A stretch of DNA of 64,000 bases from Sphingomonadaceae bacterium (GCA_947375105.1 CANCET010000002.1:10471-74470); one strand, 5' to 3'; counted from the stretch's first letter, positions 22,379 through 62,654 are shown. Notes: generated by a model from the sequence alone, not told the origin. Program-made: numbers and translations.

Positions 22379-22407
22379 TTGATAGATTCGACCCACCCCT
22401 CTGTCAA
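22379..22407 (-). promoter_or_regulatory. Sigma70-type promoter for the TBDR1 operon (TTGACA-N17-TATCAA)
   Basis: Reverse complement of 22402-22407 is TTGACA and of 22379-22384 is TATCAA; 17-nt spacer. Confidence 0.7.
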
Positions 22408-22419
22408 CACAGTAGTTGA
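22404..22419. promoter_or_regulatory. Operator palindrome TCAAC-N6-GTTGA (site A)
   Basis: TCAACACAGTAGTTGA, overlapping the -35 of the TBDR1 promoter. Confidence 0.7.
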
Positions 22420-22669
22420 AAAACGATGATGCCTGCTTTGCTGCATGTGCCAATGCGTCGCCGATCCGCGATCGAGAGCGTGCAGGGCTGTCAATTTTGG
22501 AGAGCCCTTAACCCGATTTTTATTATTTTTTATCATTATCTTACATCACGATTGGCTGGCCTCGGGGAACGCGTCTGGCTTGCAAGCACACACTCTCGCC
22601 GGCACCGAACCAGCGCTAACGGAGACTGCGGCCGACGAAGCGAAGCGGTCCAACCAAACGCCGCCAGCG

Positions 22670-22697
22670 TTGACATTACACCAGTGAACGATATTCA
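22670..22697 (+). promoter_or_regulatory. Possible sigma70 promoter for the SDR/barrel/kinase operon (TTGACA-N16-TATTCA)
   Basis: Perfect -35 at 22670-22675, weak -10 at 22692-22697. Confidence 0.4.
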
Positions 22698-22829
22698 TAG
22701 GTGGAGGAGATGGTAAGCGCACATATCGTTCGGGCAGGAACGTCGGCGTCTGGAAGATCGGCAATCAAGCCGCGCCAAGACCACCACGTCCGGCATAGCC
22801 GCAAAACCACCCCCAAACGGAGAGATGTC

Positions 22830-23576
22830 ATGGGTAGATTGTCAGGCAAGGTCGCCATCATCACGGGTGCGTCGCAAGGCATGGGTGAAGCCCACGCAAA
22901 GGCCTTTGTTGCCGAAGGCGCCAGCGTGATCCTCACCGACATAAACGCCGTAGCTGGCGAAGCGCTGGCCGAGGCGCTGGGCAGCCAAGCCATGTTTGTG
23001 AAGCACGATGTCGCCAGCGAAGCCGGCTGGGCGGAAGTCGTTGCTGCCGGCGAAGCCCGCTTTGGTCGGGTCACCGTGCTGGTCAACAATGCCGGGATCA
23101 TCGGTACCATCGCCAAGACGGCTGACCTTTCAGCGGCCGATTTTGCACACGTCTGCGCGGTCAACCAGACTGGCGTGTTTCTGGGCATGCGCGCGGTCCT
23201 GCCCTCGATGATCGCCAGCGGCGGCGGCTCGATCGTGAACATCTCCTCGACCTCGGGCATGATCGCCAATGTCGGGACGCCCAATCTCGCCTATGCTGGC
23301 AGCAAGTTCGCGGTGCGGGGCATGACCAAGCAGGTCGCCGTCGAATACGGCGACCAGAACATCCGCGCCAATTCGGTCCACCCGGGCTACGTCAAAACTC
23401 CGATGATGGTCGCCGCGACCGATGAGGACGGAGGCGGCGCAGCGGCGGGTATCCCGCTCCGCCGTTTTGCGGAGCCTTCGGAGATCTCGCCACTGGTGGT
23501 GTTCCTTGCCTCGGACGAATCCTCGTTCATCACCGGCACCGAGCATGTCATCGACGGCGGCATGATAGTGTGCTGA
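22830..23576 (+). CDS. SDR, secondary/cyclic alcohol dehydrogenase type (3alpha,20beta-HSD / cyclopentanol dehydrogenase-like)
   Basis: MGRLSGKVAIITGASQGMG, VNNAG, YAGSK, NSVHPG, VIDGG. Confidence 0.88.
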   Translation: MGRLSGKVAIITGASQGMGEAHAKAFVAEGASVILTDINAVAGEALAEALGSQAMFVKHDVASEAGWAEVVAAGEARFGRVTVLVNNAGIIGTIAKTADLSAADFAHVCAVNQTGVFLGMRAVLPSMIASGGGSIVNISSTSGMIANVGTPNLAYAGSKFAVRGMTKQVAVEYGDQNIRANSVHPGYVKTPMMVAATDEDGGGAAAGIPLRRFAEPSEISPLVVFLASDESSFITGTEHVIDGGMIVC

Positions 23577-23601
23577 GGCGGCTGGTGCTGGAGACCCTAA
23601 G

Positions 23602-26324: not shown

Positions 26325-27176
26325 CTAGAATTGCTTCACGGCAAAGGTCAGCGGATCGGGGCCGGTGCGGCCCTCCGCGCTGTCGAGTGTCGCAATCGCG
26401 CCGAGATCGGTTTCGTCGAGATCAAACGACAGTGAGGCCATGTTCTGCGCAAGGTGCTGCACACTCGTCGCCTTGGGAATGGCGGATGCGCCGGATTGGG
26501 TGAGCCAGCGCAGCACCACTTGCGAGGGCGTGCGCGCATGCTTTGCTGCGATTTCCGCAAGCACCGGCTCACCCAGCAGAGGGACTCCCCCGGTGCCGCC
26601 ACCGCCGAACGGCGACCAAGCCTGCGAAATGATGCCATGTTCCCGATGAAACGCATGCAGCGCGCGCTGCTGAAAGCGCGGATGCATTTCGATCTGGTTC
26701 ACCGCCGGCACGACCTCGGTTTCCGCGATCAACCGGCCAAGATGGTCTGCCGTGAAGTTTGAAACGCCAATCGAGCGGACCAGCCCCTCTTCCCGCAGCG
26801 CAATCAACGCGCGCCAGGTCTCGACGTAAAGGTCGTCCATCGGCAGCGGCCAGTGGATGAGGTAAAGATCGATCTGATCAAGGCCCAGACGCTGCAGACT
26901 CCCTTCGAGCGCTGCACGGGTTTTGCCGCTGCCATGCTCGGTGTTCCAGAGTTTGGTGGTGACGAACACACCCTTCCGCGCCAGCCCGCACTGCCGCAGA
27001 CCATCACCCACTTGTTGCTCGTTGCCATATACGGCCGCGCTGTCGAAGAGACGGTAGCCAGCGCCCGCCGCACTGGCGAGCACCGCCGCCGTTTCCCCTT
27101 CCGAGCCAAACCGCATGAGGCCGAGCCCCAGTTGCGGCATGCTGTGGCCATCATTGAGGATCACATTCGGGTTCAT
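26325..27176 (-). CDS. Aldo/keto reductase (2,5-DKG reductase-like)
   Basis: FDSAAVYGNE, TTKLWN, LIHWP, IGVSNF, NQIEMHP. Confidence 0.92.
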   Translation of the reverse strand: MNPNVILNDGHSMPQLGLGLMRFGSEGETAAVLASAAGAGYRLFDSAAVYGNEQQVGDGLRQCGLARKGVFVTTKLWNTEHGSGKTRAALEGSLQRLGLDQIDLYLIHWPLPMDDLYVETWRALIALREEGLVRSIGVSNFTADHLGRLIAETEVVPAVNQIEMHPRFQQRALHAFHREHGIISQAWSPFGGGGTGGVPLLGEPVLAEIAAKHARTPSQVVLRWLTQSGASAIPKATSVQHLAQNMASLSFDLDETDLGAIATLDSAEGRTGPDPLTFAVKQF

Positions 27177-27308
27177 CGTTTGTCCCCCTTGCCCTTGGAC
27201 AACCTTGTGGCGGGGCTGCCTTGTCTGCTTGCCACAAATGCTCCCGTCGTCACCTGCCCGACAAAGGTCGCTTCAACATAGTCCGACCAAGCGATCGGAG
27301 CCGTCAAC

Positions 27309-29375
27309 CTATTGGTCCGGCTCCTTCGCCAGCAACCGCGCACGGTCGGCAACATAGGCACGGACGGACTCCACATCCTCGGGCGACATCCACTTGGCGA
27401 AGCCCACCATGCCGTTGGCCTTGAGCGCGCCGTCATGCACAACCGCCTGCCACGTCGCCCTGTCGGCCAGCACGCCCGAGCGGCGCAGATCGGGCAGCAC
27501 ACCCGAGGAGCGCACGCCGCCGCCATGGCAGACCGAGCAAGTATTGCCATAAAGCTCGGCGCCCTTGGCCACCGTTTCAGGCGACCATTCATTCTGGACT
27601 ATGACAGGCGGGGCCTGCGGGGCGCGCTCGATCTTGTAGGAGGCCTTCCCGCCGAGCGCGAAGACCAGCAGCCGGCCATTGGGCCGTGGGCCCTGCAGTT
27701 CTGCAAAGGCGGCTGGCAGACCATAGCCGCCGCCATAACCGGCCATAACGGCCACATACTGCACGCCCTTCACCGAATAAGTGATCGGCGGGGCGATGAT
27801 GCCGATGCCGGCGTCATAGGACCACAGTTCCTTGCCACTTGTCGCCGCGTAAGCAACCAGCTTGCCCTTGGCATTACCCGCAAAGACGAGGCCGCCCGCG
27901 CTGGTCAGCACGCCGCCGTTGCCGGGGCCGCCGAGATCGACGCGCCAAGTCTCTCTCTGCTCCACCGGGTTCCACGCGATGAGGTAGCCGCGCAGCGTGG
28001 CCCGGATCGCTTTCAGCGTAGCCTTATCATCGGGCAGCGAGTTGATCGCGAGATTGACGCCGAGGTTCCATCCGCCGGGACGCGCCACGAAGGGCTTTTC
28101 GCTAACGTAAGCAAGGGGCACTTCCTGTGCCGGGATATAGGCGAGCCCCGCCTGCGGGCTATAGGCCATGGGCTGCCAGTTGTGCGCGCCGTGGCCGGAA
28201 GGCGTGGCGACGAACACGCCCTTTTCATAGCGGGCATCGGGATTTTCCATGGGGCGGCCCGTCGCCATGTCTACGCCGGTAGTCCAGTTGACTGGCACGA
28301 AGTTCTTGGCGGAAATCAGCTTACCGTTGCTGCGGTCGATCACGTAGAACAGGCCGTTCTTGGGGGCCTGCATCATGACCTTGCGGTCTGCTCCGCCGAT
28401 CTTGAGCGTGGCCAGAATGATCGACTGGGTCTGGGTGAAGTCCCAGCTTTCGCCCGGCACGCCCTGATAGTGCCACTTGTATTCGCCGGTATCGGCATCG
28501 AGCGCGACGACGGAGGAAACAAACAAGTTGTCGCCCTTGCCGTTCGAACGCAGGCGGTGATCCCAGGGCGAGCCATTGCCGACGCCGATCAGGACCTGGT
28601 TGAATTCCTTGTCGTAGACGATCGAATCCCAGACGGTGCCGCCGCCGCCGAACTTGGACCAGTCACCATCCCAGGTGCCCTGCATCTTCTCGATGATCTT
28701 GTCAGAGGCCGCGCCATCGGGGCCGGCGCCTTTGGCAGGCGGCACTGTGTAGAAGCGCCAGGTCATCTTGCCAGTTTGGGCATCATAGGCGCTGACATAG
28801 CCGCGCACGCCATATTCGGCGCCGCCATTGCCGATCAGCACGTTCCCCTTCACCACGCGCGGCGCGCCGGTGATCGTGTAGGGTTTGCTCTGATCGACCG
28901 TCAGTGTCGACCAGATGAGCTTGCCGGTCTTGGCATCAAGCGCGATCAGCCGGCCATCGAGCGTGCCGACATAGACCTTGCCGTCAAAGAGCGCAGCACC
29001 GCGATTGACGACATCGCAGCAGGCCTTGAACCCGGTCTCGCCGGGGACCTTGGGATCGTATTCCCAGAGGAGTTTTCCGCTCACTGCATCAAGCGCATAG
29101 ACCTTGGACCATGCGGTCGTCGTGTAGATCACCCCGTCAGCGACCAAAGGCGTCGCCTCGAGGCCGCGCGCGGTATCGAATTCGTGGCTCCAGGCGAGGC
29201 CCAGATTGCCGACCGTGCTGGCATCAATCGCGGTCAGCTGGCTGAAGCGCTGTTCGTCGGCAGTGCCGCCATAAGTTCGCCAATCTCCCGACGATACGGA
29301 GGTGATCGGATCAGCGATGGCCTGTGCGCAGCCAGCAAGCAAAAGCGAAAGAACGACCGGATGAAACTTGCGCAT
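27309..29375 (-). CDS. PQQ- and heme c-dependent (type II quinohemoprotein) alcohol dehydrogenase, Ca-type, with lipobox
   Basis: LEATPL, ACCDVVNRG vicinal Cys, GGGGTVWD, WDFTQTQ, AHNWQPM, C-terminal CSVCH; N-terminal LLLAGC. Confidence 0.92.
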   Translation of the reverse strand: MRKFHPVVLSLLLAGCAQAIADPITSVSSGDWRTYGGTADEQRFSQLTAIDASTVGNLGLAWSHEFDTARGLEATPLVADGVIYTTTAWSKVYALDAVSGKLLWEYDPKVPGETGFKACCDVVNRGAALFDGKVYVGTLDGRLIALDAKTGKLIWSTLTVDQSKPYTITGAPRVVKGNVLIGNGGAEYGVRGYVSAYDAQTGKMTWRFYTVPPAKGAGPDGAASDKIIEKMQGTWDGDWSKFGGGGTVWDSIVYDKEFNQVLIGVGNGSPWDHRLRSNGKGDNLFVSSVVALDADTGEYKWHYQGVPGESWDFTQTQSIILATLKIGGADRKVMMQAPKNGLFYVIDRSNGKLISAKNFVPVNWTTGVDMATGRPMENPDARYEKGVFVATPSGHGAHNWQPMAYSPQAGLAYIPAQEVPLAYVSEKPFVARPGGWNLGVNLAINSLPDDKATLKAIRATLRGYLIAWNPVEQRETWRVDLGGPGNGGVLTSAGGLVFAGNAKGKLVAYAATSGKELWSYDAGIGIIAPPITYSVKGVQYVAVMAGYGGGYGLPAAFAELQGPRPNGRLLVFALGGKASYKIERAPQAPPVIVQNEWSPETVAKGAELYGNTCSVCHGGGVRSSGVLPDLRRSGVLADRATWQAVVHDGALKANGMVGFAKWMSPEDVESVRAYVADRARLLAKEPDQ

Positions 29376-29408
29376 GGAATGCAGCCTATGTGCGGGTTAG
29401 TGTCGTTG

Positions 29409-29442
29409 AAAAAGTGAGGGCACCTGCGTCGCAGATGCCCTC
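29409..29442 (-). terminator. Intrinsic terminator/attenuator between TBDR2 and the PQQ dehydrogenase gene
   Basis: Minus strand GAGGGCATCTGC-GAC-GCAGGTGCCCTC (one G:U pair) followed by ACTTTTT. Confidence 0.65.
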
Positions 29443-29453
29443 GTGGTGGTCCA

Positions 29454-32051
29454 TCAGAACTTGGCGCCGACTTCGAGGCCGAACTGGCGCGGTGCTGCAC
29501 GGATACGGTAGTCACTGCCGTAGCTGCCCTCGACGTTGATTGCGTTGGGGTAGTAGAGCTTGTTGGTCAGGTTCTTGACGTAGCCGGCGATGCTGAAGTG
29601 CTGCGTCGTGTAGGAGATCCGGCCATTGATCAGCCAGTACGGCGCCTGGCCTTCACCCAGCGGGCCCCGTGCCGAATTGACCGAGCTGCCCTGCGGCCCG
29701 ACATAGTCATACGAACCGAACACGTCGTAGTAATACCGGCCGGTGTAGCTGGTATCGGCATGGACCGTGAACGTGCCCGCATCTGTCTTGTAGGCATCCC
29801 AGTCCAACCCGATGTTGCCCGAAACCTTGCTGGCATAGGGGAACGGATTGCCACCCACGTCGATCTTGCCGCCGCCGGTCGAGATGCAGTTACCAACCTG
29901 AGGCGGCGTGCCGCTGATCGGTGCGGTCGGGCAAGCGCCGTTGTCGAACTTGCTGTCGAGCACGCCGAGGCCGGCGTTAAAGCGGACGGTATCGGTTACA
30001 GCAAAGACGAGTTCCGCGTCTAGGCCGGTCAGCTTCCCATCGAGATTGATCAGGAAGGTCACCGAGCTCGGATCGAGCAGCTGCTGCTGCTGCGCCTTGT
30101 ACTTGTAGTGGAACGCCGACAGGTTGAACTGCAGGCGGTTGTCGAAGAAACGGCTCTTAATACCCACTTCGAAAGCATCAACCTTTTCTGGCTGAACGAA
30201 GTAGACCTGAGCGGCATTCTGGAAAGCCAGTCCGTTGTAGGTGCCCCCGCGATAGCCGCGGCTGTAGCTGGCATAGAGCAGCATGCTCTCGGTCGGCTTC
30301 CAGTCGATGATCGCACGGCCCGTGAGCGCGTTCGAGCCATCGCGGCGGTTGAGCGGCTTGATGCTCTTGTCGAGCGCCGCATTGTCACCGATGAAGTACT
30401 TCGAGAGCACGCCGCCGGGCGCATAGTCTGACACGGTGTAGAGGCGCGCCGCGCCAGTATCGTCGTAGAACGTGGTGAGCGCGTCGAGGTAGGCGAACTT
30501 GTCCTTGGTGTAGCGCAGACCGGCGGTGAGCTTGACCGTGTCGGTCAGTTCATAGCTGGCCTCGCCATAGATCGCGTAGGACTTGCGCTCCTGGGTGTAA
30601 TTCTGCGTGGCCTTCAGCGCGGTTGCCATGCCGCCCTCGCGACCGAGGCCAGCGGGGTTGAAGTAGGTCTTGGGATTGCCGATCGCGGCGTTCACGTCGC
30701 TGAGGAAGCCGTAGAAATCAGGCGTGTTGTTGGTGACGATCTTGTCCCAGCCATAATAGACGCCCGCGATCGCCTTGAACCGGCCGCTCGAATAATCGAG
30801 GCGCAGATCCTGGTTGAAGCTGCGCGAGGCCGAGGCATAGCCGATCGAGCACACGTTGTAGGGCGTACCGTCGCAGTCGATGCGGGGCAGCAGGCCATTG
30901 CGCGTGCGGTCGAAGCCGGTGATTGAGGTGAGGTTGACCTTGTCGCCAAGCTCGAACTTGGCGTTGAGCACGATACCGAAGGTCTTGGTCTCGGCCGTGC
31001 CGATCGAGTTGCCCTCGATCTGGCGGTCGGTCAGGCCGCGGCCCTTGGCGCTGTAGGCGGGCGGGAGGTACTTGGTGAGGTCCTGACCATTGCCGAACAA
31101 CGTGCTTGCAAGCGGCGTGTAGAAGAAACCGAACGCCGAATCTGCAAGGCTGATCGTGTCATTGGTCAGCGAGGGACCATGGTTCTGCGGTGAATCCTGC
31201 CCGCCGACCGACTGAGCCACATAAGCCTTGAGGTTGAGATCTACCCGGTCGCTGGGCTTGAAGCGGATCTGCCCGCGAATGCCCCACGATTCATGTCCGC
31301 CCGGCGAGATGCCCGCGTTCTTGTCACCGAAGGCGACATTGTCGGGAACATTGGAGTTGGACTTGATCAGGCCGACAGGCTGCACGTTGCGGACGTAGGG
31401 ATCAGAGTCGACATAGCTTCCCGCGATCCGGATACCGAGCTTGTCCTCAATCGGAGTGACTTCGATCGCGCCTTGCGCACTGATGCGGTTGAATGAGCCG
31501 TAACCGAGCGTGACGGCCCCATTCTGGCCCTGCAGCTTAGGCTTGCGGGTGATGAAGTTGATCGCGCCACCAGTGGTGTTACGCCCATAGAGCGTACCCT
31601 GGGGGCCGCGTACGACTTCCAACTGCTCAAGGTCGAACAGCTGCTGACCGTGGCTGGCGCGGAACGACTGGTACACTTCGTCGACGTAGATGCCGACCGG
31701 CGAAGCGGCGTTGGAGTTGTACTCGGTTCCGACGCCGATGCCGCGCACGGTGAAGTTTGGCTGCGTTTCGCCGTAGGCCGAGCTGACCTGCAGGTTCGGG
31801 ATCGAATTGTTGAGGTCGGTCGTGGAGAACACGCCCTGCTTAGTAAGCTGAGCCGCATTCACGGCGGTGATCGCCACCGGCACGTTCTGAAGGTTTTCGC
31901 TCCGCTTGGTCGCAGTCACGATGATTTCGCCAAGGCCCTCGGCCGGCGCGGCCTGCTCAGGCTGAGGCGCAATCTGCGCATGAGCCGTCGTGGCCAGCGA
32001 AAGAACGCTCGCTGAAACAAGCGCAGCGCGAAGAATGGTAGACCTTGACAT
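29454..32051 (-). CDS. TonB-dependent receptor 2
   Basis: Signal peptide, EIIVTATKRSENLQ, VVRGPQGTLYGRNTTGGA, C-terminal VGAKF. Confidence 0.95.
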   Translation of the reverse strand: MSRSTILRAALVSASVLSLATTAHAQIAPQPEQAAPAEGLGEIIVTATKRSENLQNVPVAITAVNAAQLTKQGVFSTTDLNNSIPNLQVSSAYGETQPNFTVRGIGVGTEYNSNAASPVGIYVDEVYQSFRASHGQQLFDLEQLEVVRGPQGTLYGRNTTGGAINFITRKPKLQGQNGAVTLGYGSFNRISAQGAIEVTPIEDKLGIRIAGSYVDSDPYVRNVQPVGLIKSNSNVPDNVAFGDKNAGISPGGHESWGIRGQIRFKPSDRVDLNLKAYVAQSVGGQDSPQNHGPSLTNDTISLADSAFGFFYTPLASTLFGNGQDLTKYLPPAYSAKGRGLTDRQIEGNSIGTAETKTFGIVLNAKFELGDKVNLTSITGFDRTRNGLLPRIDCDGTPYNVCSIGYASASRSFNQDLRLDYSSGRFKAIAGVYYGWDKIVTNNTPDFYGFLSDVNAAIGNPKTYFNPAGLGREGGMATALKATQNYTQERKSYAIYGEASYELTDTVKLTAGLRYTKDKFAYLDALTTFYDDTGAARLYTVSDYAPGGVLSKYFIGDNAALDKSIKPLNRRDGSNALTGRAIIDWKPTESMLLYASYSRGYRGGTYNGLAFQNAAQVYFVQPEKVDAFEVGIKSRFFDNRLQFNLSAFHYKYKAQQQQLLDPSSVTFLINLDGKLTGLDAELVFAVTDTVRFNAGLGVLDSKFDNGACPTAPISGTPPQVGNCISTGGGKIDVGGNPFPYASKVSGNIGLDWDAYKTDAGTFTVHADTSYTGRYYYDVFGSYDYVGPQGSSVNSARGPLGEGQAPYWLINGRISYTTQHFSIAGYVKNLTNKLYYPNAINVEGSYGSDYRIRAAPRQFGLEVGAKF

Positions 32052-32114: not shown

Positions 32115-32130
32115 TCAACACTCCCGTAGA
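32115..32130. promoter_or_regulatory. Degenerate operator (site B), one mismatch
   Basis: TCAACACTCCCGTAGA, about 65 bp upstream of the TBDR2 start. Confidence 0.45.
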
Positions 32131-32305
32131 TTACGCCGCCCACATTCGTCAACAGTGGTGTAAAATTTTTGAGGCAAGGCGGCCAAGTTGGGGGTCGTCA
32201 GCGGATATTTGTCATATATTTCAAAGCCAATCGTCGATAGACTTGGGCTTTTTGCCCGCAAGAGCCACACTCAGAGAGAGCGCCGAACACCTCAGTGCAC
32301 CAATA

Positions 32306-32321
32306 TCAACATATCTGTTGA
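32306..32321. promoter_or_regulatory. Operator palindrome (site C)
   Basis: TCAACATATCTGTTGA; right arm runs into TTGACT (-35-like) upstream of the BVMO. Confidence 0.72.
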
Positions 32322-32408
32322 CTTTTGTTGCGCGGTTGCGGACAGAGATGCGAAGGCTGCTCCGCGGATGGAGCCCGCCGGGCAATCAAGAGCAATGGCA
32401 AGGTAGCT

Positions 32409-34349: not shown

Positions 34350-34351
34350 CC

Positions 34352-35973: not shown

Positions 35974-36000
35974 ACCTCTATTATATTTGGAGTTTTTCGA

Positions 36001-49530: not shown

Positions 49531-49546
49531 ACCGCAGGAGACCCGC

Positions 49547-52613: not shown

Positions 52614-52614
52614 C

Positions 52615-54830: not shown

Positions 54831-54831
54831 G

Positions 54832-56427
54832 TCAGTCTCCACTCGTTATCTGAAAGCCGGCGTAGCCGCTGGCAGCGACTTCGTCGCAAATCGCCCGGTA
54901 GCGGCCGATGCCGCCGACAAAGGGCATAAAAACACGGGGTTTTCCGGGAATATTGGCCCCGAGATACCAGGAGTTCGCCTGCACGAAGAGCGTCTCAGCC
55001 GCTGCTTCGTTGACTTGCTGGACCCAAGCGTTTTCGGCATCGGGCTCGGGCTCGATCCGCGAGGCTCCGGTGCGAGTCAGATGCTGGATGCACTCGGCGA
55101 TCCAGTCGATGTGCTGCTCGATACCCACCACCATGTTGACCAGCACCGAGGGGCTGCCGGGGCCGGTCACGATGAACATGTTAGGGAAGTCCGCCACCAT
55201 CAGCCCCAAATAATTGCGCGGCCCATCGGCCCATTTGGCGCTGAGCGCCGCGCCATGGCGGCCCCGAATATCGATCTGCGCCAGCGCCCCAGTCAATGCG
55301 TCGTAGCCCGTCGCGCAGACGATAACGTCGACCGGCAGCACGGCGTCGGCCATGTGGATGGCATCCCCGCTAATCGCCGTGACGGGCGTCGCCTGCAGAT
55401 CGATCAGCATGACATGGGGCTGATTGTAGGTCTCGTAGTAGTCCGAGCCGACGCAAATGCGCTTGGCCCCCAGCGGATAGCCGCGCGGGCAAAGCATTTC
55501 CGCCGTCTTCGGATCGGTGACCAGTTCGCGGATGCGAGCATGGACGAAATCGGCGGCGGTCTGGTTGGCCGCCGGATCGGTCATGATATCGCTGAACGCA
55601 TGGACGAAGTTGACCCCGCCCAGCTCCCACCGGCGGCGATATTCCGCCTCGCGCGCCTCGGCACTGACGGACAGCGCCGGGGTCTGGCTGAAATCATAGA
55701 GCGTGCCGACCTGCCGCGCCTGCGCCCGGTAGTCGGCATAGGCTGCCTTCCACGCGGCCTGTTTCTCACCGCTCAGCGGCTGATTGCGCGCTGGCACCAC
55801 GAAGTTGGGCGTGCGCTGCAGAACCACAAGCCGCTCCGCCGAGCGGGCGATCTGCGGAATGGCCTGCACGCCCGACGATCCCGTGCCGATGACGGCGACA
55901 GACTTGCCGGCAAAGTCCACGCCGTCACGCGGCCATGCTCCGGTGTGCAGGATCTGCCCCGCAAACGTCTCGATCCCCGGGACATCCGGCAGGCGCGAGG
56001 CTGAGAGCGACCCGCTCGCCATGATGCAGAAGCGCGCGGTGACCTCGCCGCCGCGATCCGTATGCACATGCCAGCGGTCCGCCGCCGGATCGAAATGGGC
56101 CGAGGTGACCCGCTTTCCGAACGCAATCAGCGGTCGCAGGGCGAACCGGTCGGCCACATGGTGAAGGTAGGCGAGGATCTCGTCCTGCTGCGCATAGCGC
56201 TCCGACCAGACCCATTCCTGCTGGAGCGGATCATCGAACGAATAGCTGTATTGCAGGCTTTCAACATCGCAGCGCGCGCCGGGATAGCGGTTCCAGTGCC
56301 ACACCCCGCCGACATCGTTGGCAGCCTCGAATGCGTGGACGGCAAGCCCCAGCCCGCGCAGCTTGTGCAGCGCATAGAGCCCGGCGAACCCGGCGCCGAC
56401 GACAACGACATCCAGTTCGCGCGTCAT
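54832..56427 (-). CDS. Type I Baeyer-Villiger monooxygenase (CHMO/PAMO-like)
   Basis: GAGFAG, GGVWHWNRYPGARCD, FAGQILHTGAWP, GAKRICV, ATGYD. Confidence 0.94.
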   Translation of the reverse strand: MTRELDVVVVGAGFAGLYALHKLRGLGLAVHAFEAANDVGGVWHWNRYPGARCDVESLQYSYSFDDPLQQEWVWSERYAQQDEILAYLHHVADRFALRPLIAFGKRVTSAHFDPAADRWHVHTDRGGEVTARFCIMASGSLSASRLPDVPGIETFAGQILHTGAWPRDGVDFAGKSVAVIGTGSSGVQAIPQIARSAERLVVLQRTPNFVVPARNQPLSGEKQAAWKAAYADYRAQARQVGTLYDFSQTPALSVSAEAREAEYRRRWELGGVNFVHAFSDIMTDPAANQTAADFVHARIRELVTDPKTAEMLCPRGYPLGAKRICVGSDYYETYNQPHVMLIDLQATPVTAISGDAIHMADAVLPVDVIVCATGYDALTGALAQIDIRGRHGAALSAKWADGPRNYLGLMVADFPNMFIVTGPGSPSVLVNMVVGIEQHIDWIAECIQHLTRTGASRIEPEPDAENAWVQQVNEAAAETLFVQANSWYLGANIPGKPRVFMPFVGGIGRYRAICDEVAASGYAGFQITSGD

Positions 56428-57521
56428 GCATCCGGTTCCCGGCGCAGCGGCGCGCGCAGGGCGGTGCGCTGGCCGTTGAAGGTGGCGGGAAACAAGGTCT
56501 GCAACGCGCCATCACAGCGCTGGACGAAGCCGCGTGCGCGCACTTGCTCCGATGAAAGTGCTTCGCCGAGATCGAGAACGGGCGAAAGGCAGCAATCCGC
56601 ACCGGCGAACTGCGCCTCGATCTCGCCTAGAGTTCGGCACGCAAAGAACGCGGTGACTTCTGCAATAAGGCTCGTCTGGGGCAGCGGATCACCCTGCCGC
56701 ACTGCCCACTCCGGCCGATCTGCCGCCGCGCAGAAGTTGTGCCAGAAGCGTGGCTCGACCGGCCCGAGCATCACATGGCGCCCATCAGCTGTCGGGTAGA
56801 TGTTGTAGTAGGCCGCCGCCCCGTTAAGGTAGGTCGATCCCCGCTTTGGTACGGTGCCGTTTGCGCCCCATTCGGCCACTTGCATCGCTTGCAGCGGCAT
56901 CAACGTATCGGCCAGGCCAAGCTCGATATGCGCCCCCTCGCCCGTCCGCTGCAGGGCGTTGAGCGCACCGAGGATGGCAATCGCCGCATAGAGCGCGCCC
57001 GCCATGTCCGCGATCGGCGGATCGAAGAAGACCGGTGCCTCGCGGCCGTTGCGGTCCAAAATACCGCTTTGCGCCAGATAGTTGCCATCATGGCCCGCCG
57101 CGTCTGCCAGCGGTCCGTCCGTGCCATAGCCGCTGATCGAGCAATAGATCAGCCCCGGATGGCGCGCCGCCAGCGCGGCGTAATCAAACCCGAGCCGGGC
57201 CATGACACCGGGACGGAAGCCCTCGATCAGCACGTCGGCATCGCCCAGCAGGCCCTCCAGCGCGCTACGCCCATGGGCGGATTTGAGATCAAGCTGAAGC
57301 AGCGATTTGCCTGCATTGAGGCTGACATAAAACACTGGTTCGTCAATGGCATCCCGCGGCCCGAGATCGCGCATCCCGTCGCCCGCGGGCGGCTCGATCT
57401 TCACCACCTCGGCGCCCATGTCGGCCAGAATCTGGCTCGCGACCGGCCCCGAAATGTAGTGCGAAAGATCGAGCACTTTCACACCGGCAAGGAAGGAATC
57501 GACACCGCCCAACGCGCTCAC
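56424..57521 (-). CDS. CaiB/BaiF family III CoA-transferase fold, alpha-methylacyl-CoA racemase-like
   Basis: LADMGAEVVKIEPP, EGFRPGV, AGHDGNYLA, IADMAG. Confidence 0.85.
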   Translation of the reverse strand: MSALGGVDSFLAGVKVLDLSHYISGPVASQILADMGAEVVKIEPPAGDGMRDLGPRDAIDEPVFYVSLNAGKSLLQLDLKSAHGRSALEGLLGDADVLIEGFRPGVMARLGFDYAALAARHPGLIYCSISGYGTDGPLADAAGHDGNYLAQSGILDRNGREAPVFFDPPIADMAGALYAAIAILGALNALQRTGEGAHIELGLADTLMPLQAMQVAEWGANGTVPKRGSTYLNGAAAYYNIYPTADGRHVMLGPVEPRFWHNFCAAADRPEWAVRQGDPLPQTSLIAEVTAFFACRTLGEIEAQFAGADCCLSPVLDLGEALSSEQVRARGFVQRCDGALQTLFPATFNGQRTALRAPLRREPDA

Positions 57522-57575
57522 CCCGGCGGGACAAGCTCCCGCCTATCTTCGAATATTCTCATTGGATGGAAACCA

Positions 57576-57589
57576 TACTGATGGGTATT
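57576..57589. promoter_or_regulatory. Copy of the second candidate operator upstream of the caiB operon
   Basis: TACTGATGGGTATT matches TACCAGTGGGTATT at 42666 in 11/14 positions. Confidence 0.45.
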
Positions 57590-57607
57590 TTGCAAGCGCG
57601 AACGCCA

Positions 57608-58354
57608 TCAATTCGACCATCCACCGTCAATTATGTGGCACTGGCCGGTGGTGAACCGGGCTGCGTCGCTTGCCAGATAGAGCGCGAGGCTGGCGATCTC
57701 GTCAGCCTGCCCGAACCGGCCGAGCGGCTGGCGCGCAGCAAAGGCCGCGCGGGTCGCTGCATAGTCACCGCTTGCCAGCATCCGCGCTTCGAGCGCTGAT
57801 GTCTCGATCGTGCCGGGGCAGATCGCATTGGCCCGGATGCCTTGCGCGGCGTGGTCTGCGGCCAGCGCCTTGGTCATGCCGATGATCGCCGCCTTCGTTG
57901 CGGCGTAGGCAAACCGATCAGGCACCCCGCGCACGGAACTGGCGACCGAGGACATCGTGATGATCGATCCGCCCCCCCGCACGATCATCCCTGGCAGCAG
58001 CGCGCGGACCATGCGGAACATGGCGGTGACATTAAGATCGAAGGCCTGATCCCAATCCGCATCGCTGCAATCGAGCACTGTGCCATAAGGGACCGTGCCC
58101 GCGCAGAGGAATGCGATGTCTACCGCGCCCGCCGCCCGCGCGAACGCATCGATCGCTGCGGCATCTGTCAGATCAAAGGCAAAGGGTTCGCACCCGCACG
58201 CTGCTTCAAGCGATGCGAGGGCAGCCGCATTGATATCGACCGCCAGCACACGCGCACCCTCGCGCGCAAAGCGTTCGGCACTGGCCCTGCCGATCCCCTG
58301 CCCGGCGCCGGTAACGACCGCCGTCTTCCCATGCAGGGCACCGGGAACGGTCAA
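57608..58354 (-). CDS. SDR (BDH2 / keto-deoxy acid dehydrogenase-like)
   Basis: LHGKTAVVTGAGQGIG, YAATK, ICPGTIET, IIDGGW; TTG start overlapping the TetR stop. Confidence 0.85.
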   Translation of the reverse strand: MTVPGALHGKTAVVTGAGQGIGRASAERFAREGARVLAVDINAAALASLEAACGCEPFAFDLTDAAAIDAFARAAGAVDIAFLCAGTVPYGTVLDCSDADWDQAFDLNVTAMFRMVRALLPGMIVRGGGSIITMSSVASSVRGVPDRFAYAATKAAIIGMTKALAADHAAQGIRANAICPGTIETSALEARMLASGDYAATRAAFAARQPLGRFGQADEIASLALYLASDAARFTTGQCHIIDGGWSN

Positions 58355-59031
58355 TAGGGTGATTCCAGCCCGGCCAGCACCATCTCGGCGTAGGTCTTGC
58401 CGATCTCCTCGGCGCTGACATCGCTTTCCGCGGGCCGGAACCAGCGGTGGGTCCACCCGACGATGCCGAGAACACCGTAGGCCACGACCTTGGGCGAGCC
58501 GACGTTGCGGAATGACTTGTCGGCATAACCCTGCTCTATGATCGCAATCACCGCCTCGGACATCTGGCTGTTCAGGTCGCGCATGTAGCGTGACCATTCG
58601 GACCGCTTGTCGCTGACATTGCTGAGGTTCTCGCGGATGTAGATATACATCAGCGGATAATGTTCACCGTAGGACGACATCAGCGCGATGATCAGGTCGC
58701 TGAGCTTGCGGCGCGGGCGCATGTCGCTCGCCCGGATTTTTTGCGCCAGCGCGACATTGCGCTCCACCACGGTGCGGACGATCTCGTCGAAGAGTTCCTC
58801 CTTCGACGAGATGTAGTAGTAGAGCGAGGCCCGATCGATATTCAGCTCGGCCGCAACAGCAGTCATGCTCGCCCGTTGGAACCCCATCCGGTTGAACACC
58901 CGGATCGCCGCTTCGCCGATTTCCTTGCGGCGTTGCTGATGCGAAACGCTGGAATCCTCGCGTGCCGCCGTGCGCCGCTTGCCAATACCACTTTCGGAGG
59001 GTGCCATCATCGGCTTGCCGTCTTTCATCAT
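58351..59031 (-). CDS. TetR-family regulator (KstR2-like C-terminal domain)
   Basis: HTH GFQRASMTAVAAELNIDRASLYYYISSK; GWTHRWFRP; start uncertain (59031-59007). Confidence 0.9.
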   Translation of the reverse strand: MMKDGKPMMAPSESGIGKRRTAAREDSSVSHQQRRKEIGEAAIRVFNRMGFQRASMTAVAAELNIDRASLYYYISSKEELFDEIVRTVVERNVALAQKIRASDMRPRRKLSDLIIALMSSYGEHYPLMYIYIRENLSNVSDKRSEWSRYMRDLNSQMSEAVIAIIEQGYADKSFRNVGSPKVVAYGVLGIVGWTHRWFRPAESDVSAEEIGKTYAEMVLAGLESPY

Positions 59032-59077
59032 GCACCGCCGATTACGCGATAAAACGCGCTTTTTCCAGTTGAACGCA

Positions 59078-59848
59078 TCATCCGCGTGGCCCTCCGGCAA
59101 CGTAGAGCACTTGCCCCGTCACATAGCCCGAACGCGCATCGACAAAGAACGACACGGCGTGGGCAATATCATCGGGCTGGCCAACCCGCCCGACAACCGT
59201 TCCGGCAATCGCCTGCTGCTTCATGTCCTCGAACGTCATGCCGACCCGTGCCGCAACTTCAGCCGTCATCGCGGTCTCTACAAAGCCCGGTGCGACGGCG
59301 TTTGCCGTGATCCCGTAGCGCCCCAGTTCGATCGCCAGTGTCTTGGTCAGGCCCTGCACGCCGGCCTTGGCCGCCGCGTAGTTGGCCTCGCCCAGATTGC
59401 CGAGCGCAGCCGTGCTGGAAAGGTTGACGATGCGGCCCCAGCCCGCGCTGCGCATATGGCCCTGAACCGCGCGGCTCATCAGAAAGGCTCCCCGCAAGTT
59501 CACGTTGATCACCAGATCCCAGTCCGCCAGCGACATCTTGCCGATGGTGCGATCGCGCAGGATTCCGGCGTTGTTGACCAGTATGGTGGGCGATCCGAGC
59601 GCGGCTGCGACATCGGCAACGGCCCGTTCAACCGCCGCCTCTTCAGCAACGTCAGCGCCGACGGCAAAGGCGCGCCGCCCGAGCTGCTCGATCCCACGCA
59701 CGGTATCGTTGCACACCGCCGCATCGAGGTCGAGCACCGCGATATCATGGCCATCCGCCGCAAGGCGCAGCGCGATGCTCGCGCCAATGCCGCGCGCGGC
59801 CCCTGTGACAATGGCAACCCGGTTGGAACTGCCCCCAGCCTCGCTCAT
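59078..59848 (-). CDS. FabG-like 3-oxoacyl-CoA/ACP reductase (SDR)
   Basis: TGAARGIG, NNAGILRD, NYAAAK, VAPGF. Confidence 0.9.
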   Translation of the reverse strand: MSEAGGSSNRVAIVTGAARGIGASIALRLAADGHDIAVLDLDAAVCNDTVRGIEQLGRRAFAVGADVAEEAAVERAVADVAAALGSPTILVNNAGILRDRTIGKMSLADWDLVINVNLRGAFLMSRAVQGHMRSAGWGRIVNLSSTAALGNLGEANYAAAKAGVQGLTKTLAIELGRYGITANAVAPGFVETAMTAEVAARVGMTFEDMKQQAIAGTVVGRVGQPDDIAHAVSFFVDARSGYVTGQVLYVAGGPRG

Positions 59849-61563
59849 GCGGCCTCCACCATGTGGGCCACGGCTTCGGCGAGCATGAACTTGCGCGCCC
59901 GGCCCGAGGCGGTCGTGGGAATTTCGGATGCCTCCACGAAGAACAGATAGCGCGGCACCTTGAACCGCGCGAGGCGTTCGCGAACCAGCGCCAGCAGCCC
60001 CTCATTTGTCACATCGGCTCCGATGCTGCGAACAACTAGCGCAACACCGACTTCGCCCATGCGTTCATCGGGCAGGGGCACGACATGGGCCTGCGCCACG
60101 CCGGGATGCGAGGTCAGCACGTCCTCCACTTCGCTCGGCAAAACCTGCTCCCCGCCGCAACGGTAGGATTCCTTGAGCCGACCTGCTAGCGAGAGATAGC
60201 CATCATGGTCAATGCGCCCCAGATCGCCGGTGCGAAACCAGCCTTCGGCATCGAACGCCGCTGCCGTTTCGGCAGGCTTGTTGTAATACCCACAGGTTAC
60301 GCCCGGCCCCCGCGCGCGCAGTTCGCCCACTGCGCCGGGAGGCAGGGCGGCTTCACTTTCCGGATCAACCACCTTGTATCCAACCAGTCGTCCACCAAGG
60401 GCAGGATCACCAGCCGCGCCCGCATCGCGCAGCCGCCCATTGGAATCGAGCAATCGCTCGAACGGATCATCGGGCCGCGTGACGGTGGAGGATGCCGTGA
60501 CCTCGGTCATCCCGTAGCCAGTCGTGATCTCGGCTACGCCCAGAACGCTGCCGATCTCGCGCCAGATGCGCTCGGGCGCGCGCGCGCCGGAGGAGAGAAC
60601 CGCAGTGAGCGAGGACAGATCGCAAGCAGCTTCCCGCGCCGCATCGATCAAGGCGAGCGTCATGGTCGGCACCAGCAGTGCATCGGTCACGCGGTGGCGC
60701 GCTATCGCCGTCAGCATGTCCGCGGCAGCGAAGCGCACCTGCAGCACGATCGCTCCGCCGACGAACAGCACCGGCAGCATGCCCTCTCCGTAGCCATAGA
60801 CATGGTACATCGGCAGCGCGAAAACGATCCGCCGCCCATCCTCGAACGCGCGCGCCAAGGCGCTGGTGAAGGCGGTGCGCACAACCTGATCGTGGCTGAG
60901 CATCACGCCCTTGGGCGCGCCAGTGGTGCCGGAGGTATAGATGATATCGGCCACGCCGTCCGGGGCCGAGGACGGGAAGGTCAGGCCATCGGCCGCACTT
61001 TGCTCCAGCGCGGCAAAGGGCATGGCCTGTGCGCGGACTGGCTCTGAACCGGCCGGGAACACCACGACCTGCCGCAGCCGTGGTATCGCTTGCCCGCCTC
61101 CGCCCTGCTCCCAGCCCGGCATCAGAGCATCCAGCATGGCGAGCGTATCGAGGCCCCGGAAGCGATCCATGGTGACGAGCATGGCCGCATCGGACTGCGC
61201 AAGCACGTAGCCCAGTTCTGCCTGCCGGTTCAGGATATTGATCGGCACGGCCACCGCACCAACCCGCGCAATTGCGTACTTCAGCGCGACGAATTCGGGA
61301 TAGTTCGCCATGAGCAGCGCGACATGTTCGCCCGGCTTCACCCCCGCCGTCATAAGACCTGCCGCCAGCCGCCGCGACCAGTCCGCCAGTTCGCGATAAG
61401 TCCAGGTGCGTTCGTCGGTGATCACATAGGGCCGGTCCGGGAATTCAGCCGCCGCCGCATCCAGCATGCCGTCCAGCGAGCGCGCGATCCACTTGGGAAA
61501 GCGCGCCGCCAGAGCGGCTTGCCGGTCGGCCACGGACGGCCGCAGGGCAGCCTGCGCGGTCAC
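59845..61563 (-). CDS. Acyl-CoA synthetase (AMP-binding)
   Basis: YTSGTTGAPKG, GYGMTE, FRTGD, ESYRCGGEQV. Confidence 0.92.
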   Translation of the reverse strand: MTAQAALRPSVADRQAALAARFPKWIARSLDGMLDAAAAEFPDRPYVITDERTWTYRELADWSRRLAAGLMTAGVKPGEHVALLMANYPEFVALKYAIARVGAVAVPINILNRQAELGYVLAQSDAAMLVTMDRFRGLDTLAMLDALMPGWEQGGGGQAIPRLRQVVVFPAGSEPVRAQAMPFAALEQSAADGLTFPSSAPDGVADIIYTSGTTGAPKGVMLSHDQVVRTAFTSALARAFEDGRRIVFALPMYHVYGYGEGMLPVLFVGGAIVLQVRFAAADMLTAIARHRVTDALLVPTMTLALIDAAREAACDLSSLTAVLSSGARAPERIWREIGSVLGVAEITTGYGMTEVTASSTVTRPDDPFERLLDSNGRLRDAGAAGDPALGGRLVGYKVVDPESEAALPPGAVGELRARGPGVTCGYYNKPAETAAAFDAEGWFRTGDLGRIDHDGYLSLAGRLKESYRCGGEQVLPSEVEDVLTSHPGVAQAHVVPLPDERMGEVGVALVVRSIGADVTNEGLLALVRERLARFKVPRYLFFVEASEIPTTASGRARKFMLAEAVAHMVEAA

Positions 61564-62489
61564 GCGTCCGCAGGGCCGTCCGAACCGCGCCCAGCTTCGC
61601 GTTCAGCCTCGTAAGCCTCAAGATAGGTGCGATAGGGCGCAAATGGTGCATCGCGCATCCGCACCGCCGGGCGCACCCCGCCCTCGCGCCACACCTTGGT
61701 GAACTCTTCCATGCCCGGCCCGGCAATGCCGAGCGCATCGAGATCGTTGGCCGCAGCCATGCCGGCCTGCATGCCGGCTGCCTCGAACCAGCGGTTGGTC
61801 ACTTCCTTGTGGCTGTAGATCGCATCGAGCGGCACATTGGATACGCGCTTGGCATAGGCCATCGCCACGGCTTCCAGTTCCTCGCGAGGCACTGCCCGGT
61901 TCACCAAGCCCATTTCGGCCGCTTCCACGCCGGTCATGTTGTCGCCGGTGAACAGCCATTCCTTGGTCTTGCGCATGCCGAGATGGATCGGCCACATCGC
62001 GAAGACATGAAGCTCACCCATGGCGCGCGCCTCGGGCTGGCCGAGCAGGGCATCTTCGGCGGCAAAAGCAATGTCGCACACGCCAATCAGATCGAGCGAT
62101 CCGGCAACGCAGTGCCCGTGGACCACCGCGATCGTGCACTGGCGCAGGCGGAACAGGCGCATCCAACGCTCGCGCGAGAGGTGGAACTCGCGACGCGACC
62201 AGACAGGATTACGGCGATGCGGACGACGCTGCACTTCATTGATCGCGCTGTCGGCATCCCAGAGATAGGAGAATTCCTTGAGATCGTAACCCGTGCCGAA
62301 ATGGGCGCCGTTGGCCTTGATCACGAGGACACGCGTCTCGTCGTCATGATCAAGATCGTCCATCACCCGGTCAAGCTCATCGCGCAGCTGCACCGAAATC
62401 GCATTGCCGGTGTGCGGGCGGTTCAGGGTGACTGTCGCGATGCGATCAGCCTTTTCGTAGATCAGGGTTTCAAACTGCATTGCCAGCAT
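61560..62489 (-). CDS. Crotonase/enoyl-CoA hydratase family protein
   Basis: LNRPHTGNA, FGTGYDL, VHGHCVAG, GQPE; canonical GGxE motif divergent; start may be 62480. Confidence 0.85.
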   Translation of the reverse strand: MLAMQFETLIYEKADRIATVTLNRPHTGNAISVQLRDELDRVMDDLDHDDETRVLVIKANGAHFGTGYDLKEFSYLWDADSAINEVQRRPHRRNPVWSRREFHLSRERWMRLFRLRQCTIAVVHGHCVAGSLDLIGVCDIAFAAEDALLGQPEARAMGELHVFAMWPIHLGMRKTKEWLFTGDNMTGVEAAEMGLVNRAVPREELEAVAMAYAKRVSNVPLDAIYSHKEVTNRWFEAAGMQAGMAAANDLDALGIAGPGMEEFTKVWREGGVRPAVRMRDAPFAPYRTYLEAYEAEREAGRGSDGPADA

Positions 62490-62517
62490 CCTTGGTTGTC
62501 ATGTTCTCTGGTCAAGG

Positions 62518-62558
62518 TGGTTATCGCCGAGGAACGCTTTAGTCAACATATACGTTGA
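62518..62558 (-). promoter_or_regulatory. Operator site E (62543-62558) overlapping a putative minus-strand TTGACT-N17-TAACCA promoter
   Basis: TCAACATATACGTTGA; -35 at 62541-62546, -10 at 62518-62523 on the minus strand. Confidence 0.65.
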
Positions 62559-62613
62559 TTTTATCCATCCGAGCCCAAAAACCGAGACCTTGAATGCACC
62601 GGAAGCAGTTTAA

Positions 62614-62654
62614 TCAACATAAGTGTTGATCCGTGATCGCAGAAGCGATATCCG
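62614..62654 (+). promoter_or_regulatory. Operator site F (62614-62629) overlapping a putative TTGATC-N17-TATCCG promoter
   Basis: TCAACATAAGTGTTGA; -35 at 62626-62631, -10 at 62649-62654. Confidence 0.65.

Follow-up and report, generated by a model that had tools for sequence, protein, structure and literature searches.

TetR2 and a TCAAC-N6-GTTGA palindrome as the probable repressor-operator pair of a catabolic island in a Sphingomonadaceae bacterium

The 16-bp palindrome TCAAC-N6-GTTGA, found at four promoter regions of the 64,000-nt window (the whole stretch of Sphingomonadaceae DNA analysed here), is, judged from sequence comparison, very probably the binding site of TetR2, a 226-aa regulator encoded on the minus strand at 58351..59031. 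In its extended form R-TCAAC-R-N4-Y-GTTGA-Y, the palindrome would in all likelihood be the operator of TetR2 acting as a repressor, with binding, promoter occlusion and an acyl-CoA effector as inferred elements. TetR2 has the domain layout of its family, an N-terminal helix-turn-helix domain (PF00440, E 4e-12) followed by an all-helical C-terminal ligand domain (PF17932 TetR_C_24, E 5e-15), and its AlphaFold model (pLDDT 85, nine helices) retrieves TetR regulators exclusively as top PDB fold matches. The recognition helix DRASLYYYISSKEELF is at least 95% conserved across 81 homologues, and a protein 96% identical to TetR2 is encoded by the cultured Novosphingobium sp. AAP93. The 18-bp extended palindrome with its strict N6 spacing is of the kind expected for TetR repressors, and the promoter of the tetR2-containing operon carries the site at 62543, a placement typical of autoregulation.

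All five exact copies named by the original prediction were recovered (22404, 32306, 42707, 62543 and 62614), against 0.04 expected from dinucleotide shuffles of the window, none of which held more than one exact match. Allowing up to one mismatch yields eight matches in the window (1.09 expected), the three extra ones being the previously noted intergenic copy at 32115 and two copies at 10305 and 43124, both within coding ORFs. The scan of coding DNA, which had been left incomplete, was extended to the whole 3.63-Mb assembly (294 contigs), where the five window copies are the only exact ones, each intergenic, and where other spacings from N0 to N14 give 0-4 matches each. In a PWM scan of the genome, proposed alongside the original prediction, the five sites score 23-33 bits and the runner-up, AT-rich noise, scores 20.9 bits. 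Sites with up to two mismatches in the non-coding DNA of the window are confined to four divergent regions, holding 22404; 32115, 32149 and 32306; 42707; and 62543 and 62614, respectively. The motif had been placed in four of five divergent regions: the four site-bearing regions stand, but the gene map of 19-64 kb contains four such regions in total, all of them with sites. Two more divergent gaps of the same window, located at 2.7 kb and at 9.4-9.6 kb, are devoid of sites. The base following TCAAC is A in all five exact sites, as had been stated.

Seven transcription units can be predicted around these sites. Operator A (TCAACACAGTAGTTGA, 22404..22419, exact) is predicted to face unit 1 (18564..22256, minus strand), which comprises TonB-dependent receptor (TBDR) 1 (19851-22256) and a luciferase-like monooxygenase (18564-19757). 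Unit 2 (26325..32051, minus strand) encodes TBDR2, a PQQ alcohol dehydrogenase with a cytochrome c domain and an aldo-keto reductase; the TBDR2 start lies 64 bp downstream of a weak operator with one mismatch (TCAACACTCCCGTAGA, 32115..32130) that matches the consensus at all four extended R/Y positions. A second weak operator with two mismatches (TCAACAGTGGTGTAAA, 32149..32164) is located 34 bp from it, and tandem sites 34-35 bp apart also occur in the loci L022, where they precede a TBDR, and L061. Operator B (TCAACATATCTGTTGA, 32306..32321, exact) lies upstream of unit 3 (32325..41205, plus strand; BVMO1, with its true start probably near 32409, ECH, 3-hydroxyacyl-CoA dehydrogenase, ACAD, acyl-CoA ligase, SnoaL, BKACE and cyclase), and its orthologous site is retained in the relative G031 (L020:11557). 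Operator C (TCAACATATGTGTTGA, 42707..42722, exact) occupies the 139-bp divergent region between unit 4 (41207..42653, minus strand; SDR and GST) and unit 5 (42793..52002, plus strand; BVMO2, acyl-CoA ligase, cyclase-family protein, APH kinase, DUF7065, CoA-transferase-like protein and P450). Operator D (TCAACATATACGTTGA, 62543..62558, exact) faces, as its promoter-proximal site, unit 6 (51999..62489, minus strand), which carries ECH, acyl-CoA ligase, SDR, TetR2, a further SDR, CoA-transferase III, BVMO3, esterase, FMO and a second TetR, TetR1. Finally, operator E (TCAACATAAGTGTTGA, 62614..62629, exact) is positioned upstream of BVMO4 in unit 7 (62662..63999, plus strand), which extends past the window end.

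In total, the island contains four BVMOs, an FMO, two TBDRs, three acyl-CoA ligases and kinase/DUF7064-7065 modules. The original prediction assigned three of the four BVMO operons and both kinase triads to the regulon. All four BVMOs and the FMO would be covered if the minus-strand run 62489-51999 forms one operon, as presumed for unit 6, whose 86-bp internal gap (57522-57607) contains no site. The second kinase triad is part of unit 5; the first (22710-26319) begins about 290 bp from the site at 22404 with promoter-like sequences in between, which makes its control doubtful in this genome. In the loci L046 and L057, the orthologous triad and tetR2 are divergent, with a site between them.

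A central element of the original prediction was that the operators overlap core promoters. The three -35/-10 pairs it described are present with 17-nt spacers: TTGACA (22407-22402), N17 and TATCAA (22384-22379) on the minus arm of operator A, TTGATT-N17-CAAAAT (42719-42747) on the plus arm of operator C, and TTGATC-N17-TATCCG (62626-62654) on the plus arm of operator E, ending 7 nt 5' of the BVMO4 ATG at 62662. A strict sigma-70 consensus scan of the window does not call these three, and individual promoters in the window are best treated as candidates. The minus arm of operator D similarly reads TTGACT-N17-TAACCA, and operator C contains the -10 (TATGTT) of a minus-strand promoter-like match. 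Across the sites of homologous loci, the -10-like hexamer TAnnnT is found at spacers of 16, 17 and 18 nt from the arm TTGA in 3.9%, 7.8% and 4.9% of 309 arms, compared to about 0.6% elsewhere; this roughly 9-fold enrichment supports the overlap of operators with the -35 box. The same enrichment bears on whether TetR2 might bind the sites and yet activate, or play a dual role, at some promoters, as operator B, for which no convincing -10 was found at the correct distance, and several sites of relatives are located farther upstream than any promoter that can be recognised, and the TetR2 fold matches include FasR, an acyl-CoA-responsive TetR that activates. Since the spacing of the -10 hexamer puts many operators on the -35 box, operator C encloses a -10 element and TetR regulators are mostly repressors, activation is regarded as unlikely, while being the most credible of the alternatives.

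The assignment of the palindrome to TetR2 is based on 80 loci (1.307 Mb, several phyla) that were chosen solely by TetR2 peptide patterns and whose TetR2 homologues share 37-98% identity; these loci are partly orthologous and do not represent 80 independent tests. They contain 154 exact TCAAC-N6-GTTGA sites, with at least one in 69 of the 80 loci and none in the remaining 11. The spacing is nearly invariant (N6, 154; N5, 4; N7, 2; others within N2-N10, 0-7), and 11 of the 13 matches to the reversed order (GTTGA-N6-TCAAC) are accounted for by TCAAC-N6-GTTGA operators in tandem at a distance of 22 bp and do not represent another motif. Positions that were not part of the search pattern are conserved as well, namely position 0 (G 55%, A 33%, C 1% of the 154 sites) and position 6 (A 59%, G 33%, C 0%), resulting in the extended consensus given above. 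The strict form TCAACA-N4-TGTTGA reaches 42.8 sites per Mb in the TetR2 loci, about 500 times its density in 58 relatives without TetR2 (16 sites in 195 Mb). With a conservative ORF map in which non-coding sequence makes up 19% of the DNA, at least 114 of the 154 sites are intergenic; divergent regions form the largest group (54 of these 114) and 47 sites are located between co-directional genes. In agreement with the claim that one regulon joins the TBDR, BVMO and acyl-CoA modules, orthologous promoters of the syntenic relative G031 (75% identical) retain the sites, including a pair 71-72 bp apart. The gene triad ACS-SDR-TetR2 is conserved among the loci. The cluster around a TetR2 homologue of 30% identity in G033 is a different one; it contains four sites, of which one precedes the homologue's own gene. 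The pair is found again, amid rearranged gene sets, in Sphingomonadales, Brevundimonas, Steroidobacteraceae, Burkholderiales and Actinomycetota, and the presence of the same repressor-site pair from Proteobacteria to Actinobacteria marks the control logic as ordinary.

Co-occurrence does not equal binding, and the loci share ACS, SDR, BVMO and TBDR genes in addition to tetR2, so that an unlinked regulator could recognise the palindrome while TetR2 merely accompanies the pathway genes. This is quite improbable, given that no DNA-binding protein other than TetR2 is shared by all loci, as follows from their selection and from the gene maps, that sites lie directly 5' of tetR2 (<300 bp upstream) in 28 of the 80 loci, from different phyla and with differing neighbour genes, and that among 60 relatives, contigs with several sites were found solely where TetR2-like genes are present. 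Binding by TetR1 (51999..52628, minus strand), alone or jointly with TetR2, is less credible still. TetR1 shares both domain types (PF00440 and PF17932) with TetR2 and belongs to one minus-strand run of genes with it, but the two proteins are about 21% identical, the recognition helix of TetR1, TKPFIYNHFKSKAE, is unlike the conserved helix of TetR2, TetR1 orthologues (>60% identity) occur in just 4 of the 80 motif-rich loci, and of the two TetR types only the TetR2-like one is encoded in the four-site cluster of G033. TetR1 is thus probably not the binder of the motif, and the choice of the TetR at 58351-59031 in the original prediction is strongly supported by a motif that tracks its homologues across phyla and not those of the other TetR. 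The notion that the motif has no dedicated binder and consists of nothing more than -35 boxes arranged back to back at divergent promoters, or of an AT-rich palindrome arisen by chance, can practically be dismissed: GTTGAC does contain the -35 core TTGAC and divergent regions do hold the largest group of sites, but the spacing is fixed, the conserved positions 0, 6, 11 and 12 fall outside a -35 hexamer, 47 of the intergenic sites lie between co-directional genes, every other promoter in 3.6 Mb is devoid of the motif, and it is retained in Actinomycetota loci.

Under the favoured reading of TetR2 as repressor, one dimer would bind per palindrome, with half-site centres approximately 11 bp apart. 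As the operators would lie on or adjoin core promoter elements, with the arm TTGA often doubling as -35 box, bound TetR2 would exclude RNA polymerase from the seven transcription units. The predicted targets are two TBDRs, four BVMOs and the FMO, an esterase, SDRs, acyl-CoA ligases and beta-oxidation-type enzymes; the tetR2 operon itself would be among them, rendering the system autoregulated. Release would most likely be achieved by a CoA thioester produced by the co-transcribed acyl-CoA ligase. This acyl-CoA effector is a guess from relatives at 24-28% identity and from gene linkage, and a lowered DNA affinity of acyl-CoA-bound TetR2 is suggested by its fold neighbours together with the ACS-SDR-TetR2 triad.

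A TetR repressor acting on promoter-overlapping palindromes is textbook logic; the pair may additionally mark out an uncharacterised ketone/lipid degradation pathway. It is tentatively proposed that the operator delineates an undescribed multi-phylum catabolic regulon for the degradation of a hydrophobic natural ketone or acid, with TetR2 sensing a CoA thioester of the pathway. The substrate could be a freshwater norisoprenoid, terpenoid or methyl-ketone lipid that enters via the TBDRs together with an MFS transporter; it might then be activated as CoA thioester, opened by Baeyer-Villiger oxygenase and esterase, and processed by beta-oxidation-type enzymes and the APH-kinase/DUF7064-7065 modules. 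If true, the motif would provide physiological context for several families of unknown function and a ready-made biosensor part. The operator offers a sequence-level criterion for which genes group together in a paralogue-rich island, and the recurrence of the pair with reshuffled gene sets makes it possible to reconstruct the core pathway, along with its uptake step, by comparison. Regulator and operator are now named and testable, and the Novosphingobium AAP93 protein could help to find inducer and substrate.

Among known systems, the acyl-CoA sensors KstR2 and PfmR are the solved proteins nearest to TetR2 in both sequence and fold; the top fold matches are KstR2, PfmR, 3dcf and 2ibd, with FadR, FasR and AibR ranking lower within the first 50. 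The best fold match, which also ranks among the best PDB sequence matches, is KstR2 (Rv3557c) of Mycobacterium tuberculosis (4w97 and 4w1u, E 1e-15, 25-26% identity). As proposed for TetR2, this TetR regulates its own expression, and its palindromic operator occupies divergent promoter regions within a gene cluster for CoA-dependent catabolism. KstR2 represses the lower cholesterol (HIP) pathway and is released by a CoA thioester, HIP-CoA (PMC8700777); its operator is the 14-bp AnCAAGnnCTTGnT (PMC3068626). The KstR2 regulon covers HIP degradation genes, while that of TetR2 would cover BVMOs, TBDRs and esterases. TetR2 is not a KstR2 orthologue, as its operator is not AnCAAGnnCTTGnT, TCAAG-N2-CTTGA occurs only six times in the 80 loci, and the sequence similarity (25-26% identity, phmmer E 4e-15) is below orthology level. 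The comparative result corrects the automatic IMG label 'cholesterol catabolism regulator' carried by many TetR2 homologues. PfmR (3vpr, Thermus thermophilus) is close to TetR2 in sequence and fold, FadR (3anp/3ang, T. thermophilus), FasR and AibR were retrieved in the fold search, and all of these, including FadR of Bacillus subtilis, share 13-28% identity with TetR2. The TetR2 ligand domain (TetR_C_24) belongs to the fold class of acyl-CoA-responsive TetRs, and the same logic, in which a pathway CoA thioester frees the repressor, is expected for TetR2, which is linked to an acyl-CoA ligase. The NCBIfam models of FadR and FasR give weak partial matches, and none of the NCBIfam equivalogs reaches its cut-off for TetR2. 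The operators of PfmR, FadR, FasR and AibR differ from TCAAC-N6-GTTGA. A further parallel is EdcR of Caenibius tardaugens, a sphingomonad TetR over catabolic operons and a TBDR gene. EdcR is autoregulated and represses EdcT, a TBDR, along with genes for the degradation of estrogen, through a palindrome, TnnCnnTACnAnTnGTAnnGnnA, that overlaps core promoter elements, with the free steroids E1 and E2 as effectors (PMC8700777). Judged by operator motif, the TetR2 sites are not of the EdcR type. In Corynebacterium, McbR (TAGAC-N6-GTCTA) and AmtR (CTAT-N6-ATAG) each bind short inverted arms separated by N6 as one TetR dimer. Their regulons concern sulfur and nitrogen metabolism and, like their arms and ligand domains, differ from those of TetR2, but the operator architecture is that of the TetR2 sites, and AmtR is among the PDB matches of TetR2.

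Exact copies of TCAAC-N6-GTTGA are present at 22404, 32306, 42707, 62543 and 62614 (sites A to E), all as originally predicted and against 0.04 matches expected from dinucleotide-preserving shuffles of the window; throughout the whole 3.63-Mb assembly (294 contigs), the exact pattern is confined to these five sites. Arm spacings of N0-N14 yield 0-4 matches each across the same assembly, in which the window occupies C2:10471-74470. In a genome scan with a position weight matrix built from the five sites, a check proposed together with the original prediction, these sites score 23-33 bits and the next genomic match, AT-rich noise, reaches 20.9 bits. If up to two mismatches are permitted in the non-coding DNA of the window, all sites fall within four divergent regions, which contain 22404; 32115, 32149 and 32306; 42707; and 62543 and 62614, respectively. 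The uniqueness of the five sites and their placement in divergent regions indicate that the motif is real, specific and restricted to this island. A one-mismatch scan of the window adds 32115, an intergenic copy that had likewise been predicted, as well as 10305 and 43124, which both lie within ORFs and were rejected as operators because of their location in coding DNA. At spacing N6, the one-mismatch class comprises 95 matches versus up to 51 at control spacings, so that only about half of these matches represent signal; 32115 and 32149 were retained on grounds of position and extended bases. The extended bases also fit in the copy at 43124-43139 (TCAACACCCGTGTTGC), located 330 bp into the BVMO2 coding region, which is probably a chance occurrence, while an internal operator site within this gene is conceivable.

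Two TetR proteins are encoded in the window, TetR2 (58351-59031, minus strand), which had been put forward as the best candidate regulator, and TetR1 (51999-52628, minus strand). Both match PF00440 and PF17932, with a mutual identity of only ~21%. Among the genomes of 60 relatives, a TetR2 orthologue is found only in G031 (75% identity), while G033 encodes a distant homologue (29-30%). The G031 cluster is syntenic with the window (55-83% protein identity), and exact sites recur at orthologous positions. The region separating BVMO4 from the ligase operon holds a pair at a distance of 72 bp, compared with 71 bp in the window; a third site is found between TBDR2 and BVMO1, and the cluster contains a fourth. 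The G033 cluster differs in make-up; of its four sites, two precede a TBDR, one a ligase and one the cluster's own tetR gene, whose product resembles TetR2 and not TetR1. Isolated exact matches in five other relatives (G020, G039, G055, G046 and G011) are not surrounded by homologous genes and were treated as chance.

The analysis was extended to 80 loci drawn from 185,579 species genomes by two TetR2 peptide patterns alone, representing Sphingomonadales, Caulobacterales, Steroidobacteraceae, Burkholderiales, Acidimicrobiia and Actinomycetes at TetR2 identities of 37-98%. By the closest records among them, the window comes from a freshwater Novosphingobium. These loci (1.307 Mb) contain 154 exact sites, with at least one site in 69 of the 80, while arms spaced at N2-N10 except N6 and unrelated palindromes each give 0-7 matches. 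The stricter form TCAACA-N4-TGTTGA occurs at 42.8 per Mb in the loci versus 16 sites in 195 Mb of 58 relatives without TetR2, an approximately 500-fold enrichment. Exact sites also precede tetR2 itself at a distance below 300 bp in 28 loci, spread over several phyla, and TetR1 orthologues are present in only four of the 80 loci. The motif thus tracks TetR2 homologues, in favor of TetR2 as the regulator. Conservation of the recognition helix DRAxxYYYxxSKEELF and an N-terminal RR pair (at least 95% in 81 homologues) fits an operator that is unchanged down to 37% TetR2 identity. We conclude that TCAAC-N6-GTTGA is very probably a genuine and conserved operator, with an uncharacterised subfamily of TetR proteins predicted from these sequence comparisons to bind it. 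TetR1 itself ends a long minus-strand run, and its orthologues in the four related loci always follow BVMO3-esterase-FMO. One TetR2 homologue (L059, 10001-10669; 64% identity, Pseudomonadota MAG) contains an in-frame stop codon, which may reflect a pseudogene or an assembly error; its locus keeps two exact sites.

Two positions outside the search pattern are conserved among the 154 sites: the position preceding TCAAC holds G or A in 88% and C in 1%, and at the position following it A or G make up 92% and C is absent, which defines the operator as an 18-bp palindrome, R-TCAAC-R-N4-Y-GTTGA-Y. The outer flanks are only mildly AT-rich. On a conservative ORF map with 19% non-coding DNA, at least 114 of the 154 sites are intergenic, a lower bound because the crude, GC3-based ORF caller over-extends 5' ends; 54 of these 114 lie between divergent and 47 between co-directional genes. 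The copies at 32115 and 32149 (one and two mismatches) are 34 bp apart and 64 bp upstream of TBDR2, and tandem pairs 34-35 bp apart are also seen at L022 (9994/10028, before a TBDR) and L061 (11463/11498). Brevundimonas loci (L068 at 3491-3528 and others among L064-L077, L086 and L091) carry tandem operators whose centres are 22 bp apart, or roughly two turns of the helix, with the sequence TCAACGCGGTCGTTGA-tttttg-TCAACACCAGTATTGA; these account for 11 of 13 'reversed-arm' GTTGA-N6-TCAAC matches.

Operator arms had been proposed to overlap -35 boxes in three promoters. The corresponding sequences are present with 17-nt spacers, as is a further candidate at site D (TTGACT-N17-TAACCA, towards the tetR2 operon), but a strict sigma-70 scan of the four divergent regions calls none of them; at site C, it calls a minus-strand candidate promoter with its -10 inside the operator. 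The overlap was therefore assessed statistically across the family. Following the TTGA of an arm, TAnnnT occurs at spacers of 16, 17 and 18 nt in 3.9%, 7.8% and 4.9% of 309 arms, respectively, versus ~0.6% at other offsets, which supports the proposed overlap and indicates that the arm doubles as a -35 box in a substantial share of sites. From this enrichment we infer repression by promoter occlusion: TetR2 on the operator would occlude the promoter and repress the downstream units. The candidate -10 of BVMO4 (TATCCG; region 62649-62664) leaves 7 nt to the start codon (ATG, 62662); provided that this promoter is genuine, it would yield a leaderless or almost leaderless mRNA. In sequence and fold (structure model with pLDDT 85), the nearest solved relatives of TetR2 are KstR2, PfmR, 3dcf and 2ibd, followed by FadR, FasR and AibR. 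Since these represent an acyl-CoA sensor group and tetR2 is predicted to be co-transcribed with an acyl-CoA ligase gene in most loci, the effector is likely of the acyl-CoA type, and a CoA thioester of the pathway would release TetR2 from the operator.

Gene context was read from Pfam matches. Site A separates TBDR1-luciferase-like monooxygenase on the minus strand from SDR-DUF7064/7065-APH kinase on the plus strand. Site B and the copies at 32115 and 32149 are flanked by TBDR2-PQQ alcohol dehydrogenase-AKR (minus) and BVMO1-ECH-HCDH-ACAD-ligase-SnoaL-BKACE-cyclase (plus), site C by SDR-GST (minus) and BVMO2-ligase-cyclase-APH-DUF7065-CoA-transferase-like-P450 (plus), and sites D and E by ECH-ligase-SDR-TetR2-SDR-CoA-transferase III-BVMO3-esterase-FMO-TetR1 (minus) and BVMO4 (plus). 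Three of the four BVMO operons had been assigned to the regulon; BVMO3 and FMO are also covered if the 10-gene minus-strand run forms one operon. Across the 80 loci, the gene next downstream of a site recurrently encodes a TBDR, BVMO, acyl-CoA ligase, SDR, ECH/HCDH/ACAD or TetR2, and a minimal unit in Brevundimonas consists of operator, TBDR, MFS transporter, ligase, SDR and TetR2 opposite a DUF35/thiolase pair. Both kinase triads had been included as well; control of the first (22710-26319) is doubtful in this genome, as it starts ~290 bp from site A with intervening promoter-like sequences and no second site, although L046 and L057 have a site between the orthologous triad and a divergently oriented tetR2. 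The two SDR or ligase/DUF7064-7065/APH-family kinase modules (22710-26319 and 46909-49530) are reminiscent, in arrangement, of LvaA- or ACAD10/11-type 4-hydroxyacyl-CoA kinases; such an activity would be in keeping with hydroxy acids arising from lactones that BVMOs make. The 468-bp stretch 47935-48402, flanked by the APH kinase and DUF7065 genes, lacks a Pfam match, and the sole ORF examined there (47955-48314, minus strand) has no family match. Positions 1-18200 encode further CoA-dependent catabolism (ligase, OYE-type flavin reductase, SDR, ACADs, HpcH-type lyase, MaoC hydratase, thiolase and ECH) and contain no operator copy, which places this left third outside the TetR2 regulon.

Sequencing runs matching the window are freshwater DNA metagenomes or runs under the label of organism A (RNA-seq mostly poly-A), and two possible RNA runs match only 7-12% of sampled words. 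For 61800-63800, near-identical DNA (90-100% of sampled words) was detected in 2024-2025 runs labelled organism A or B (X10-X14), and the bacterium may live with, or contaminate cultures of, a eukaryotic host. In the cultured isolate Novosphingobium sp. AAP93, TetR2 has a counterpart with 96% identity (protein P0012, 120-kb contig), which makes this a practical strain for TetR2 genetics. The main use of the operator is as an entry point to an uncharacterised catabolic pathway.

None of the NCBIfam equivalogs fits TetR2, and the IMG label 'cholesterol catabolism regulator' on its homologues is automatic. No description of a TCAAC/GTTGA operator was found in the literature on TetR palindromes, acyl-CoA, and BVMO/TBDR regulation in Sphingomonadaceae, and the motif is absent from a mycobacterial TetR survey (PMC4482099). 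PheR of Sphingobium, which belongs to the IclR regulators and recognises a core of GCAACG, was set aside as not relevant (PMC13273656). The KstR2 operator, AnCAAGnnCTTGnT (PMC3068626), and the EdcR operator, TnnCnnTACnAnTnGTAnnGnnA (PMC8700777), both differ from the TetR2-linked TCAAC-N6-GTTGA.
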